Shown here: positions 42,059 through 46,338 of the stretch, piece by piece
Layout: each line of letters begins with the position of its first letter
Position numbering within the stretch: position 1 is the first letter of the stretch
Origin: a virus
Taxonomy: Duplodnaviria; Caudoviricetes
IMG/VR virus record: IMGVR_UViG_2974707348_000001
Span: 1-64,000 of that record
Length of the DNA: 64,000 nucleotides
Strand: one strand, 5' to 3'
Notes under the pieces: model-generated
Databases searched by the model: none
What the model was told of the DNA's origin: nothing
The model's input: the letters and a program-made list of their open reading frames with translations, nothing else
Made by a program: the position numbers and the translations under genes

Positions 42059-42658
42059 ATGAAAGAAATTGATTCAAAAGAGTTCTTTCCTATAAAAAGA
42101 TATGAAGGTATTTATGAAATCAATACTAACGGAGATATTCGTTCAGTAGATAGAATAATAACAACTAAAGGAAGCAATGGAAGGGGCTCTTACACTTCTC
42201 ATAAAAAGGGAGTTCCAATGAAGAGTTTTCAAAATGGTAGTGGTTATCTTCAAATTAGATTAAGTGTAAATGGTAAATGTAGAATGGAATATGTACATTG
42301 TCTTGTATATGATACTTTCATTGGTATCGAAGATAAGAAAAATGATATAGACCACTTAGACCATAACAAATTAAATTGTTCATTGAATAATTTAGAGGAA
42401 ATAACCCATAAAGAAAATATGAGAAGAATGCGTAAATTCTATGGTATAGAAGCTAAACCCAAAGAAAAGAAAAGCCGAAGAACTTATACATATGATGAAA
42501 TGAAGGAAGCTCTTGAAAGACTTAAAGCTGAACCAATGTCTAAGGTCTGTAAAGACTATGGAATTTCTGATAAAGGTTTATCAAAAAGACTTAAGAGTGT
42601 AGGTCTTCCATATCAAATGAAGGAAATAAATAAATACTTTAATAACAACTTCTTCTAG
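42059..42658 (+). CDS. free-standing NUMOD4-HNH endonuclease adjacent to the tRNA island
   Basis: YEGIYEINTNGDIRSVDR; VHCLV..IDHLDHNKLNCSLNNLE. Confidence 0.88.
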   Translation: MKEIDSKEFFPIKRYEGIYEINTNGDIRSVDRIITTKGSNGRGSYTSHKKGVPMKSFQNGSGYLQIRLSVNGKCRMEYVHCLVYDTFIGIEDKKNDIDHLDHNKLNCSLNNLEEITHKENMRRMRKFYGIEAKPKEKKSRRTYTYDEMKEALERLKAEPMSKVCKDYGISDKGLSKRLKSVGLPYQMKEINKYFNNNFF

Positions 42659-42667
42659 TTGTTATCT

Positions 42668-42740
42668 GCTCGGTTGGTGAAGCTGGATATCATGCAAAAT
42701 TTCTAATTTTGTGTCAAGGGTTCAAATCCCTTACTGAGTA
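42668..42740 (+). tRNA. tRNA-Arg(UCU)
   Basis: Acceptor GCTCGGT/ACTGAGT; anticodon arm CAAAA-TTTCTAA-TTTTG; T-arm AAGGG-TTCAAAT-CCCTT. Confidence 0.85.
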
Positions 42741-42781
42741 TATCAAGTCAATCTTGATTGATTTCTTTATTAGATTAAATG

Positions 42782-42864
42782 AAGTGGTGGAGGTACAGAT
42801 GAATCTGTAACGTACACATGGGTTGGGGGTACGGTAAGTAGTGTAGCTTATCGCTCGACCATTT
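42782..42864 (+). ncRNA. four-way cloverleaf RNA of unknown type
   Basis: Closing stem AAGTGGT/ACCATTT enclosing three hairpins. Confidence 0.5.
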
Positions 42865-42871
42865 TTATTAA

Positions 42872-43217
42872 GGGGATGTAAAGGTTTCGACAGACTATGG
42901 CAATCTCAAATCACATTCCGACAGGGATAGTCGTAAAAACCAAACTAAATATAATTGCAAATACTCAATTAGCTGTAGCCTAAGCTACAAAAAAGTTTAA
43001 GTAATTAAACAGCTAGTAACTGAGACATCGGTAGGTCACTAGTACAAAACAGATGTGTGATGGATTCTGATAAGTCACGATTAACAATCAGAACAGAGTT
43101 AGTAGATAGTTGTTTATTCAAGAAACTAACAATGTGTATCCAATGAATAAACTATGAATGTAAGAAAGTTTTAAGATATGTATAGTTTGGACGCGGATTC
43201 GATTTCCGCCATCTCCA
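42872..43217 (+). ncRNA. ssrA: tmRNA
   Basis: 5' GGGGATGTAAAGGTTTCGAC; 3' GACGCGGATTCGATTTCCGCCATCTCCA with G3.U70; resume context ATAATT-GCA, tag ANTQLAVA* at 42957-42983. Confidence 0.93.
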
Positions 43218-43309
43218 TCATGTTTTTAAAACATATTTAAAAAACATATTACTTTATACTTGACAAACATTAAAAAATGTGTTATAATAGTATATAGTGA
43301 TTATTAAAT

Positions 43310-43461
43310 GAAATAGAGTGCGAGGTCAGTCATATCATTATGATAGTGGACTGAATGACTAGAGTAAAAAGACTAACAATCTTCTAGTCTTAGAATAGGC
43401 AAGTTCCGTTCAATGTCGCCCAAGATTTCGGTTGGAGAAACTGAGAAGACAGCTTTATTTC
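43310..43461 (+). ncRNA. structured ~150-nt RNA at the start of a promoter-driven RNA operon
   Basis: Closing stem GAAATAGAGT/GCTTTATTTC with internal hairpins; promoter at 43260-43288. Confidence 0.5.
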
Positions 43462-43465
43462 TAAA

Positions 43466-43538
43466 GGTTTGTTGGTGTAGTGGTTATCACGCTTGCCTGT
43501 CACGCAAGAGAACACGGGTTCGAATCCCGTACGAGCCG
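43466..43538 (+). tRNA. tRNA-Asp(GUC)
   Basis: Anticodon arm CTTGC-CTGTCAC-GCAAG; T-arm ACGGG-TTCGAAT-CCCGT. Confidence 0.92.
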
Positions 43539-43715
43539 TAGATAAGATAGTAATACGAGTCTTATCGCCCTCTAGGGTTCACTGTAATGCCTAGGGTAAA
43601 AGGCTTTAGCCTAGTCCAGTATGGTAGTTTTAGTAACTTTATAACAAAGTTCTAAAGTCATCGAGGATATTGGACTAATGTAACACTACTAAATGTTAGA
43701 AAGTTAGTAGTCAAA

Positions 43716-43777
43716 GGTTAACGAGTGGTAGCAGTAGTTATTAAATGTTCAGCTGATGAAGTGGACAGCCAAGTATA
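43716..43777 (+). repeat. 62-nt structured RNA repeat, copy 1
   Basis: 59/62 identical to 45882-45943. Confidence 0.9.
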
Positions 43778-43905
43778 GGGTGCTTAGGATAATAATAAAG
43801 ATAGTCCTAATTGTTAAATGAGTAAAACTATCCAAGTCGACGGAAACTAACAGCCCTTTGTATATTATATGTCAGTGAACCTTTAACGTAGCTGGCATAT
43901 AATAA

Positions 43906-43977
43906 CAGGATATAGTGTTAATGGTAGCATGCGTGTTTTGGGAACATGTAGTGTTGGTTCGAGTCCAGCTATCCTGA
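43906..43977 (+). tRNA. tRNA-Pro(UGG)
   Basis: Acceptor CAGGATA/TATCCTG; anticodon arm CGTGT-TTTGGGA-ACATG. Confidence 0.9.
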
Positions 43978-44182
43978 TGAGTGGTGTATAGTCCACACGT
44001 AAAGTGTCTAATCGGTGTACAACGTATGGCACAACTATACAAGCATGAGAGTATGATAAATACCTGACGGGTGTAGCTACTATTTGTTATAACTACTTAT
44101 GTTAGTTACCAGAAACCTAGTGTATTAAATGTCACAGGGTAAAGGATAGGAACAAAGACCTATCGAATAAGTGACAGCTGGT

Positions 44183-44241
44183 TAGAGTAATAGGTTGCAA
44201 CAGGTCACGACTGTGGAGGGTCCGAGTCCCTTCTGCTCTGT
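44183..44241 (+). ncRNA. mini tRNA-like RNA 1 (no D-stem or anticodon arm)
   Basis: TAGAGTA/TGCTCTG acceptor, hairpin ACAG/CTGT, T-arm GGAGGG-TCCGAGT-CCCTTC. Confidence 0.5.
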
Positions 44242-44300
44242 TGAGGGAGCATAAACCTGGCGAAAAGTTATGTGGAGGAATAAACCTGGCGAAAAATTCA

Positions 44301-44358
44301 TCCGATATTATGGTTAAATAAAGGACGCTTTATGTTGGTTCGATTCCAACTGTCGGAT
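44301..44358 (+). ncRNA. mini tRNA-like RNA 2
   Basis: TCCGATA/TGTCGGA acceptor, ATAAAG-GACG-CTTTAT hairpin, T-arm GTTGG-TTCGATT-CCAAC. Confidence 0.7.
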
Positions 44359-44418
44359 ATAGGTGTTGCTTATTCACCGTATAATAAGCTAGAAAAGTAA
44401 GTATAGTAGGTAAATAAA

Positions 44419-44934
44419 ATGACAAATCCAATTCTAATCAAAGAATTAAGTTTTCAACTTAAAGAATATCGAGATATCTTAACAGATATTATTAAGTTAT
44501 CTGCACGTTCTGATGACCAAGCAAATTCAGCTAAAAATATATTATTTCAAATATTTTATCATACAGAATGGATGATTCAAATGTATGCTGGTAATTATGA
44601 AGAAAAACCATACGGAGACTCCGAAGATTTAAGTTTTAAAGAAGGAAAAGTTTCTCAAAATATTGTAAAATATATTATGGATAACTTCAAAGGTATTCCA
44701 CTTACAGAAGAAGGTTTGAGTAAGTTGACTAAGAAAGAAAAAGAATTTTTAAATCCTTTCGAAGACCTATTATCTATCACCCATAGAATGATAAGAGCTG
44801 TTGTAGATTATTCAGATAGTCATTCTGAAAGTAAAACTATAGACAGAACAGATGCACAACCTATGAGTATTTTATATTTCATTGATTCACTGAAAGAAAG
44901 AACTGCTTATGCTATGGAAAAAGAAGTATACTAA
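44419..44934 (+). CDS. hypothetical protein embedded in the RNA island
   Basis: 171-aa ORF. Confidence 0.65.
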   Translation: MTNPILIKELSFQLKEYRDILTDIIKLSARSDDQANSAKNILFQIFYHTEWMIQMYAGNYEEKPYGDSEDLSFKEGKVSQNIVKYIMDNFKGIPLTEEGLSKLTKKEKEFLNPFEDLLSITHRMIRAVVDYSDSHSESKTIDRTDAQPMSILYFIDSLKERTAYAMEKEVY

Positions 44935-45073
44935 TTTAGGTGACTCACTACCTATACCCCAAATGTGAAGCTTAAAGGGGGTTAATAACACTATTCCCTA
45001 GGTTTGAATCCTTGAAAATTATCGGTAAGCGATGATTGCAAAATTCATAGTGGATGGAGCAAGAGTGTTTCAT

Positions 45074-45147
45074 TGGTTGGTAGCTCAGTTGGTAGTAGCA
45101 CTAGTCTCCAAAACTAGGTGTCGTGAGTTCGAATCTCACCCAATCAG
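45074..45147 (+). tRNA. tRNA-Trp(CCA)
   Basis: Anticodon arm CTAGT-CTCCAAA-ACTAG; canonical D and T arms. Confidence 0.92.
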
Positions 45148-45212
45148 TATGTAAGAGCTGTGCACAGTTACTTACAGAGTTAGGTCAAAGGATTAATTAA
45201 CCTTAACCAAAC

Positions 45213-45266
45213 GGCTTGTTTTTGGTAATAACATGCGTTAACTGAGTTCGATTCTCAGGCAAGTCT
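45213..45266 (+). ncRNA. mini tRNA-like RNA 3
   Basis: GGCTTGT/GCAAGTC acceptor, TAAC-ATGC-GTTA hairpin, T-arm CTGAG-TTCGATT-CTCAG. Confidence 0.7.
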
Positions 45267-45322
45267 TATCAGTACCTTATCCGCTTAAGTAGAAATACAG
45301 CGCATTAGATAAGGGCGATTGA

Positions 45323-45394
45323 ATCCGTTTAGTGTAGTGGTAAGCACATCAGATTCCAAACCTGATAACGTGGGTTCGATTCCTACAATGGATG
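45323..45394 (+). tRNA. second tRNA-Trp(CCA)
   Basis: Acceptor ATCCGTT/AATGGAT; anticodon arm TCAGA-TTCCAAA-CCTGA (A.C mismatch); T-arm GTGGG-TTCGATT-CCTAC. Confidence 0.8.
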
Positions 45395-45607
45395 TTATAT
45401 GTGTGCAAGTCTCTCATAAAGGGAGATGGTGTTAAATGCGGAAGATGTCCGACAGCCATATAAAAACAACACAGCCAAAATACGACTCTATATAGATATT
45501 TTGGTTTGCAATCTTGGTGGTAATCGTTATAGAGACGGTAAGTCCGAAAATGATAGGGAAGGTGTTGTATGCCTATCTACGAGAGTGTTCAAGAAGCTCT
45601 CAATTAT

Positions 45608-45679
45608 ACAGGGTGGGTGGCAAGGAGTCGCATTAGTTTTATAGGCTAAATAAGAGCGGTTCGATTCCGTTACCCCGAA
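45608..45679 (+). tRNA. tRNA-Ile(UAU) with an imperfect acceptor stem
   Basis: Anticodon arm TTAGT-TTTATAG-GCTAA; T-arm AGCGG-TTCGATT-CCGTT. Confidence 0.6.
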
Positions 45680-45881
45680 TATTACTGAAAAGTAATTAAA
45701 AGGAACTTTGAGTAGTTCGCCTTTATGGAAACGGGTTGTTAGTGTATACCGCAAAAGAAAACTATCCGTTACTCTTTACGATATAAGAAGCTTAAAATCA
45801 TGTTTGGTCTTTGCATATCATTCCTAAAGACTAAGGTGTACTGATTGACGGTGCTTAAATGTTATAGAGTTGACAGCCAAT

Positions 45882-45943
45882 GGTTAACGAGTGGTAACAG
45901 TAGTTATTAAATGTTCAGCTGATGTAGTGAACAGCCAAGTATA
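45882..45943 (+). repeat. 62-nt structured RNA repeat, copy 2
   Basis: 59/62 identical to 43716-43777. Confidence 0.9.
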
Positions 45944-46052
45944 CATTGGTCTTGATAGATAATGTGAAGGTTATATTAGCTAGTCTATGATATAACTCAA
46001 AAAACTACTTGCACAGTACTCGATTTGTAGTTTACCAATACACAATTTGGTT

Positions 46053-46129
46053 TCCCACTTCGTTTAAACATTGGAAGAAGACTGCCTATTCGAGAACAGG
46101 CAACCTCGGTTCGATTCCGAGGGTGGGGA
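46053..46129 (+). ncRNA. tRNA-like RNA with an enlarged (10-nt) anticodon loop
   Basis: TCCCACT/GGTGGGG acceptor, D-arm, TGCCT-ATTCGAGAAC-AGGCA, T-arm CTCGG-TTCGATT-CCGAG. Confidence 0.65.
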
Positions 46130-46224
46130 TTTAATTTAAAATATTATTACTCATCTCTTGACAAACTCATTTGATTATGGTATAATAATATATGTAAGTT
46201 AAAAAAACGTAAGGAGAACAAAAT

Positions 46225-46338
46225 ATGGGATGTTTAATTCCGATTGTATTAATTGTATTTTTAATCAATCCAGCTATGGGTTTAATGACAGCAATTATTT
46301 TATTGATTGTATTGGCACTAGCAAGTCTTAAAAAATAA
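46225..46338 (+). CDS. 37-aa hydrophobic peptide
   Basis: AAGGAG RBS; MGCLIPIVLIVFLINPAMGLMTAIILLIVLALASLKK. Confidence 0.65.
   Translation: MGCLIPIVLIVFLINPAMGLMTAIILLIVLALASLKK

Follow-up and report, generated by a model that had tools for sequence, protein, structure and literature searches.

A recurrent junction motif in the tRNA array of a Lactococcus 949-group phage, a candidate family of small structured RNAs

Several systems place structured elements other than conventional transfer RNAs (tRNAs) among tRNA genes or between transcribed units. The tRNA cluster of phage T4 encodes small stable RNAs (species 1 and 2, rnaC/rnaD) that are not tRNAs, are co-transcribed with them and have no known function. 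In the mitochondrial tRNA punctuation model, tRNA-shaped elements located between units, whether coding or non-coding, act as cutting marks. Theta ribozymes, which are minimal ribozymes of the hepatitis delta virus (HDV) type, are tied to phage tRNA genes and are described as likely to act in tRNA or array processing (PMC10879173). A further point of reference is provided by the type III antitoxins (ToxI and antiQ) and phage pseudo-ToxI mimics, which PMC13064643 presents as multicopy phage or plasmid RNA units that bind an RNase. Here, the comparison is with a recurrent RNA motif, present as six modules (A to F), in a 64,000-nucleotide stretch of DNA (hereafter the window) that forms the first 64 kb of the 123,023-base virus record IMGVR_UViG_2974707348_000001. 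Its closest DNA matches, Lactococcus phages AM1 and 949 of the genus Audreyjarvisvirus (formerly the 949 group; 91-94% identity over 72-88% of a 3 kb query), identify its source by sequence as a dairy Lactococcus phage of the 949 group. Comparison among phages makes it credible that the modules are an undescribed family of small structured RNAs (30-80 nucleotides, nt) of dairy phages. Conserved, supported by covariation and without a known family, the motif makes a good candidate for a structured-RNA family of its own.

The motif is strongly localized. The pattern TTAAATG-N(8-38)-ACAGCC has five forward and no reverse matches in the whole 123,023-base genome, and all five lie within 2.2 kb. 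The reversed pattern, serving as a control, gives 0 forward and 0 reverse matches in the same genome; for two unrelated genomes of bacteria, its yield is 3+1 matches per 2.7 Mb and 1+1 per 6.2 Mb. ACAGCC itself occurs eight times on the + strand of the window; six of these occurrences fall between 43765 and 45931, and five of the six sit 17-36 nt 3' of a TTAAATG. The junctions start 73, 311, 1307, 423 and 52 nt apart, and every copy lies inside one promoter-to-promoter tRNA array. An initial annotation of the window had listed seven copies. Six of them are confirmed at the listed coordinates, five by the pattern counts and one (module C) as an AGT..ACAGCT variant; the seventh, a "weaker copy" at ~44012-44080, has neither junction nor ACAGCC and folds no better than shuffled sequence (z +0.87).

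All six modules are encoded on the + strand. Module A (43716-43770) comprises a closing helix P1 (43716-18/43768-70), a hairpin P2, an unpaired UUAAA (43741-45) and a helix P3 (43746-51/43762-67). Module F (45882-45936) is its near-duplicate: the two are identical at 59 of 62 positions, as had been annotated, with differences at 43731 (G/A) and 43764 (G/A) that exchange G.U for A-U in predicted stems and a third at 43759 (A/T) in a loop. Module B (43777-43857) has a 5-bp P1, AGGGU/GCCCU (43777-81/43853-57), followed by P2 UUAGGA/UCCUAA (43784-89/43805-10), UUAAA at 43814-18, and a P3 that begins UG..CA and includes a 2-nt AA bulge. Module E (45835-45878), the most conserved type, contains P1 (45835-37/45876-78), P2 (45838-43/45849-54), UUAAA (45855-59) and P3 (45860-64/45871-75). 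The remaining two modules lack P2. Module C (44119-44179) has P1 AGU/GCU, only GUA before UUAAA, and a long P3 (UGUCAC..GUGACA); its membership is suggested by the common junction letters and by the G-C to A-U change in P1. Module D (45397-45462) starts 2-3 nt after a tRNA-Trp gene and consists of an outer stem (UAUAUG/CAUAUA) around a hairpin at 45409-27 and a core at 45428-45457 that reads GGU-G-UUAAA-P3-GCC. Its orthologues are found in phages 949, AM1, LW81, phiL47 and PMBT69.

A decayed copy of E, termed E' (43668-43715, + strand), retains a recognisable 3' half, has lost ACAGCC and is identical to E at 27 of 48 positions. It belongs to an 88-nt duplication (43690-43777 and 45856-45943, 89% identity). 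Because this duplication puts the decayed copy ahead of A, the window contains one cassette in two forms, E'-A-B-tRNA-Pro and E-F. Separately, a conserved module at 43980-44062 forms a GUAUAGU..ACUAUAC helix around AGU-bulge-UAAAG-UG..CA-ACU; its strand topology is motif-like and its letters are different, and it may be a distant relative.

The copies share a core in which P1 (GGU/GCC) is stacked on P3 (UG..CA). The 3' strand of this core is continuous (..CA-GCC), and the 5' strand is broken between GGU and UG by a G, an optional hairpin P2 and the unpaired UUAAA. The initial annotation had described a three-way junction throughout. This holds for A, B, E and F but not for C and D, where the absence of P2 between GGU and UUAAA leaves a bulged helix; because of these two copies, the common core is P1 on P3 with a 5'-strand bulge (G + UUAAA) that is able to host a hairpin. 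The same annotation had counted the G of UAAAUG and the CA of CAGCC among the junction letters, and these are instead base pairs of the second hairpin. The model for E (GGU / GUACUG-AUUGA-CGGUGC / UUAAA / UGUUA-UAGAGU-UGACA / GCC) is a perfect three-way junction with one unpaired strand only.

The pairing in E was assessed in 29 distinct sequences from named phages and IMG/VR contigs, in which 97.8% of the alignment cells are paired. Pair 8-22 is UA in 14 sequences, UG in 9, CG in 5 and another combination in 1; pair 32-41 is UA in 11, UG in 10 and CG in 8; and pair 30-43 is GC in 28 and AU in 1. Both-sided changes occur in 14 cells as compared to 2.6 in shuffles, with none of 500 shuffles reaching 14, and sliding the pairing partners reduces pairing to 23-61%. 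At the level of the aligned sequences, this covariation supports P2 and P3 of E. P1 is invariant within E. Outside E, it changes only in ways compatible with pairing: U.G becomes U-A in variants of B that read ACAACC, and G-C becomes A-U in C. In one phage 949 copy, a C opposite G is replaced by U.

The first retrieval of E used a pattern that fixed the junction and the P3 loop, and the retrieval was repeated with P2 alone because of the bias this could introduce. The P2-only search gave 99 matches, of which 5 are unrelated coding sequence, 1 is cut off and 93 are complete copies of E. TTAAAT and the P3 loop are kept in all 93, and the sole junction-side change is G to A (2 copies), each time paired with C to T. 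A reading of UUAAAUG as the start of a mini-open reading frame was considered and rejected because the change from AUG to AUA is accompanied by a compensating C to U.

Module B shows the same constancy of junction with greater freedom in the arms. Pairing extends to 93.2% of cells in an alignment of 21 distinct sequences, in which the divergent P2 arms are misaligned by MAFFT; pair 39-52 is GC in 19, AU in 1 and CG in 1. Across phages, one constant junction is combined with no fewer than six P2 hairpins that are unrelated to one another and with several distinct P3 loops. In the B orthologue of phage 56301, P2 changes in a compensatory manner from UUAGGA/UCCUAA to UUCGGA/UCCGAA. Taken together, covariation and the swapping of hairpins across phages bear out the annotated picture of a fixed junction with variable hairpins that pair at the RNA level.

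Two covariance models were built, as the initial annotation had proposed. Model R1, made from E, scores E at 76.8 bits, A at 23.1 bits (E-value 2e-4) and C at 7.6 bits; it is too specific, finding A and F weakly, D and C at E-values above 4, and B not at all. The general model R2, whose training set includes A itself and orthologues of D, finds E, F, A and D, all in or near that training set (A 40.9 bits; D 22.5 bits, E-value 1.5e-4), and does not find B or C. A search of two Lactobacillus phage loci with R2 gave no match.

It had also been allowed that the motif might belong to an existing Rfam family. No copy matches Rfam 15, at gathering scores or at an E-value of 10 or below, in window positions 42500-46300 or in three loci of 936-group phages; the only families listed there are tRNA and transfer-messenger RNA (tmRNA), apart from chance-level matches that fall on other sequence. 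The modules are not recognised as tRNAs by ARAGORN or by the tRNA model (RF00005, E-value 10 or below), their P1 of 3-5 bp being accompanied by no T-loop. In the same regions, cmscan with permissive filters lists no ribozyme family at an E-value of 10 or below; Rfam presumably includes models for the hammerhead, twister, twister-sister, pistol, hatchet, hairpin and HDV-like ribozymes. Neither GOLLD nor ROOL, models of which we take to be included in Rfam, is among the matches for the window and the three 936-group loci. Full-text literature searches, supplements not covered, found no published description of the motif, and the accessible portions of PMC6105707 and PMC12724721 mention only tRNA scans.

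The motif is common to two unrelated phage groups that infect one host, the 949 group and the 936 group (Skunavirus), the latter being reported as the commonest isolates from dairy fermentations (PMC6105707). E is present in 388 Lactococcus phage records: 20 at 99% identity or above, 202 at 95-99%, 164 at 90-95% and 2 at 80-90%. The 936-group gene m3 is present in 376 records, in 103 of these at only 80-90% identity. By these figures E appears more conserved than the neighbouring protein gene and is found in about as many records, a comparison of totals in which the two record lists were not intersected.

The gene order around E is regular in 936-group phages. E begins 7 nt downstream of the m4 stop codon and is succeeded by B, whole or reduced to a remnant by deletion, with tRNA-Trp ~11-13 nt later; further tRNAs or relics make up the rest of the array, which extends as far as the start of the small open reading frame (ORF) m5. 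At least two T-arm boxes are present in 63 of 65 arrays with a recognisable m5 start. Just before m5, ~10 nt ahead of the ribosome-binding site of this small membrane ORF, lie 48-nt tRNA-like elements that lack an anticodon arm and score 29-32 bits with the tRNA model, at its gathering threshold (loci L009, 2107-2154; L011, 2061-2108; and L002, 3954-4002). These look like processing marks rather than decoders and would keep only what RNase P and RNase Z require. Copies of the motif recombine, because deletion forms in the 936 group fuse one ACAGCC to the sequence 3' of the next ACAGCC. DNA blocks shared by the 936 and 949 groups overlap module copies. In phage 949 (L001, 5257-5329), a tRNA with the anticodon CTA, of the amber suppressor type, directly follows the counterparts of E and B; downstream of E in the window, there are module F and only a tRNA-like relic.

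Beyond these phages, E was found in seven stretches of bacterial assemblies (L114-L120), all short contigs (one of 31.5 kb) from unrelated genera and labelled Staphylococcus, Paenibacillus, Bradyrhizobium, Oceanibaculum and a Clostridia metagenome-assembled genome. These contigs are read as contamination by 936-like phages. Of 401 Bacilli genomes, 77 contain matches to a 17-letter pattern of the motif; their scatter resembles that of the reversed control (which was not summed), and the pattern is not enriched in this set, from which Lactococcus chromosomes were absent. The pair of E and B at a distance of 9 nt occurs in Bacilli genomes only in one of the E-bearing contigs above, read as phage-derived.

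In the window, seven tRNA genes and one tmRNA gene lie at 40.5-46.15 kb, all on the + strand. Five of the tRNA genes, called by ARAGORN/Rfam, are inside the array, where they alternate with motif modules on the same strand (43466-45680): tRNA-Asp (43466-43538), tRNA-Pro (43906-43977), tRNA-Trp (45073-45148), a second tRNA-Trp (45323-45394) and tRNA-Ile(tat) (45607-45680). Several tRNA-like relics and one 171-codon ORF complete the array. A consensus promoter, TTGACA-17-TATAAT with TG (43260-43288, + strand, 12/12 matches), probably drives the whole array, and a second such promoter (46158-46186, 12/12 matches) closes it; the two promoter regions are 71% alike. No convincing terminator-like site was found between the promoters, the single weak one being located inside tRNA-Ile. 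Because two perfect promoters have no convincing terminator between them, the motif-bearing stretch looks like a single transcription unit, and the modules would be transcribed as part of the phage tRNA array.

The sole ORF inside the array (44419-44934, 171 amino acids) belongs to phrog_6282, of unknown function, and has no Pfam family. It was considered as a universal protein partner of the motif and rejected because it is missing from 936-group phages. Its homologues in the Lactobacillus plantarum phages Lenus and Bacchae lie beside tRNA genes or directly after a 16-tRNA array. Relics of tRNA-like form, with good T-arm boxes and no ARAGORN call, lie at 44181-44243, 44300-44365, 45200-45262 and 46040-46130; the one at 44300-44358 is a weak match to tRNA-Sec (21 bits) with TTA at the would-be anticodon position. 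Between two of the relics, at 44242-44298, are two adjoining 28-nt direct repeats, 82% alike, that contain ATAAACCTGGCGAAAA. Also recurrent, as a second spacer, is a long hairpin rich in A and U (UAUUAUAUG..CAUAUAAUA), which precedes tRNA-Pro in the window (43862-43903) and, in the 936-group loci examined (e.g. L009, ~1695-1760), separates tRNA-Trp from the tRNA gene that follows; the outer stem of module D has the same letters. Shortly upstream of the array promoter is a phage-encoded tmRNA (42872-43217; Rfam, 111 bits; tag peptide VKTKLNIIANTQLAVA), and an HNH endonuclease gene is located at 42059-42658. In phage 949, an HNH endonuclease gene occupies the place of the tmRNA.

The leading proposal for their role, which is put forward tentatively and falls well short of probable, is that the modules are factor-recognised end-caps or punctuation in a polycistronic RNA processed at its tRNAs. 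They would act in cis. Host RNase P and RNase Z would excise the neighbouring tRNAs and tRNA-like relics, and after these cuts the flanking RNAs would carry modules at their freshly made 3' or 5' ends. A protein, most likely a host factor that processes or binds RNA, could engage the compact fold by way of the junction, whose sequence is conserved, and the docked module would fix or protect the RNA end. Recognition by a factor, beyond the effect of a mere stable hairpin, is suggested because the paired letters around the junction are conserved at the sequence level. The arrangement of the copies fits this proposal: E has a fixed place at the end of the m1-m4 message, B lies just ahead of a tRNA in the 936 group, D follows directly after a tRNA in the window, and the tRNA relics retain only acceptor and T arms. 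The near-universal placement of E right after m4 in the 936 group points to a cis role in RNA processing or stability as much as to a decoy.

Several observations weigh against the end-cap proposal. Its protein partner is purely conjectural, and a plain exonuclease roadblock would not need a conserved junction sequence. Some types fall outside the general model R2: B scores 11.2 bits (E-value about 1) and C is not found. The single-sequence folding energies of the six copies (z -0.3 to -2.0 as compared to shuffles) are not significant; it is the comparison of different phages that supports the structure. Not every copy is needed: B frequently has internal deletions in the 936 group, and E' is decayed in the window. 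Finally, the distance between module and tRNA is not fixed: it is ~11-13 nt for B in the 936 group and 49 nt from B to tRNA-Pro in the window, where A, E and F are more than 100 nt from any called tRNA, with A and E at more than 150 nt, and only D abuts one (2-3 nt).

A different view, which is doubtful, is that the modules constitute a novel class of lactococcal phage RNAs that are active in themselves, either as a sequence-specific decoy for host RNA-targeting abortive infection (Abi) nucleases or as a minimal self-cleaving ribozyme, and serve within the tRNA arrays as a multicopy device for counter-defence or processing. The decoy version is the main rival to the end-cap proposal, and as a specific claim it is rather unlikely. 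The modules would be released as small RNAs that titrate a host RNA-targeting Abi toxin, with exposed UUAAAU as bait; the target could be one of the type III toxin-antitoxin RNases (AbiQ, AbiD/D1/F or AbiV) or some other RNase. Toxins of the ToxN type cleave RNA at sites resembling AAAU. Multiple copies with conserved sequence and variable arms are the pattern expected of a protein-binding site, the motif occurs in two unrelated phage groups of one host, and copies of B come and go in the manner of accessory genes. The host biology described in PMC13064643 is also favourable, in that six lactococcal Abi systems couple a protein with an RNA and phages may escape ToxIN by antitoxin mimics. The near-universal, positionally fixed E of the 936 group is, however, core-like rather than accessory-like, there is no fixed-period tandem array, and AbiQ is listed as active against both phage groups (PMC13064643). 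Two weak tests point the same way: BLAST against Lactococcus and other plasmids gave tRNA matches only, and no motif was found near 30 AbiD/F (PF07751) genes in Bacilli genomes, a set with no certain lactococcal Abi locus. The ribozyme version, in which a new small self-cleaving RNA cuts the array into pieces, is improbable. It would account for the clustering of ~17 conserved letters at a junction, amid variable arms, within the tRNA array of a phage, and the theta ribozymes are a precedent for ribozymes associated with phage tRNAs (PMC10879173). Yet 10 of the conserved letters form plain Watson-Crick or G.U pairs, the junction has a single unpaired strand (UUAAA), P2 is dispensable as judged by the copies that lack it, the distance to tRNA ends varies, and no Rfam ribozyme family matches at an E-value of 10 or below.

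Two further explanations would assign the modules no RNA function. They could be leftovers of duplicated E-F-B-tRNA cassettes, relics or recombination scaffolds that were shuffled along with tRNA genes. The 88-nt duplication with its decayed E', the deletion forms in which one ACAGCC has come to abut what normally follows the next, and the many degenerate tRNAs nearby are all in keeping with such a history. The compensatory nature of the changes and the invariance of the junction in 93 of 93 copies of E, while the adjacent gene m3 has diverged to 80-90% identity in 103 of its 376 records, make this explanation unlikely. Still less likely, to the point of being very improbable, is a site that acts at the DNA level, as a single-stranded hairpin for recombination or replication or as the target of a homing endonuclease. 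The HNH endonuclease gene at 42059-42658 and the overlap of module copies with blocks shared between the 936 and 949 groups would suit such a site. Against this, the copies share a strict strand bias with the tRNAs (five forward, none reverse) and lie inside the transcription unit, and the opposite strand would have mismatches in place of the G.U-type pairs (U.G in P1 and the UA/UG/CG series).

In terms of significance, the motif provides an RNA element of 45 nt that exceeds a neighbouring protein gene in conservation, is found in about as many phage records, shows compensatory changes and has no Rfam match. If the end-cap proposal is true, the modules provide a handle on how phages turn tRNA arrays, dead tRNAs included, into RNA-processing signals. 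If the decoy or ribozyme version is true, a host-phage system in which RNA-based Abi defences already abound would gain a weapon or a catalyst that works at the RNA level. All of these possibilities are directly testable in a laboratory model of phage and host.

Compared with the closest described systems, the modules resemble each in part. Like theta ribozymes, they are small structured RNAs associated with phage tRNA genes; theta ribozymes lie within +/-5 nt of a tRNA, whereas the modules lie 2 to >150 nt away and do not share this spacing (PMC10879173). The covariation-supported module helices form a plain three-way junction, and the fold modelled here, a junction or a bulged helix, would differ from the nested double-pseudoknot of theta ribozymes (P1, P1.1, P2, P3 and P4); the Rfam HDV families do not match the modules. 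The resemblance to type III antitoxins, RNA systems of a kind in which the genus Lactococcus is described as rich (PMC13064643), is one of multiple copies. These antitoxins are head-to-tail repeats of fixed period beside a toxin gene, in contrast to the irregular spacing of the modules. Tandem Repeats Finder returned 0 rows for 43200-46200, and no toxin (endoRNase) gene adjoins the modules; because there is neither a tandem array nor an adjacent toxin gene, the locus is not a type III antitoxin. The T4 species 1 and 2 RNAs are alike in being structured non-tRNA RNAs in a phage tRNA cluster. They are single copy and longer, in contrast to modules of 30-80 nt that are multicopy and have a defined common junction. 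The likeness to mitochondrial tRNA punctuation resides in the 48-nt tRNA-like elements that the 936 group keeps between m4 and m5. The modules themselves are not tRNA-like, and in place of cutting marks they would be the capped ends that such cutting leaves.

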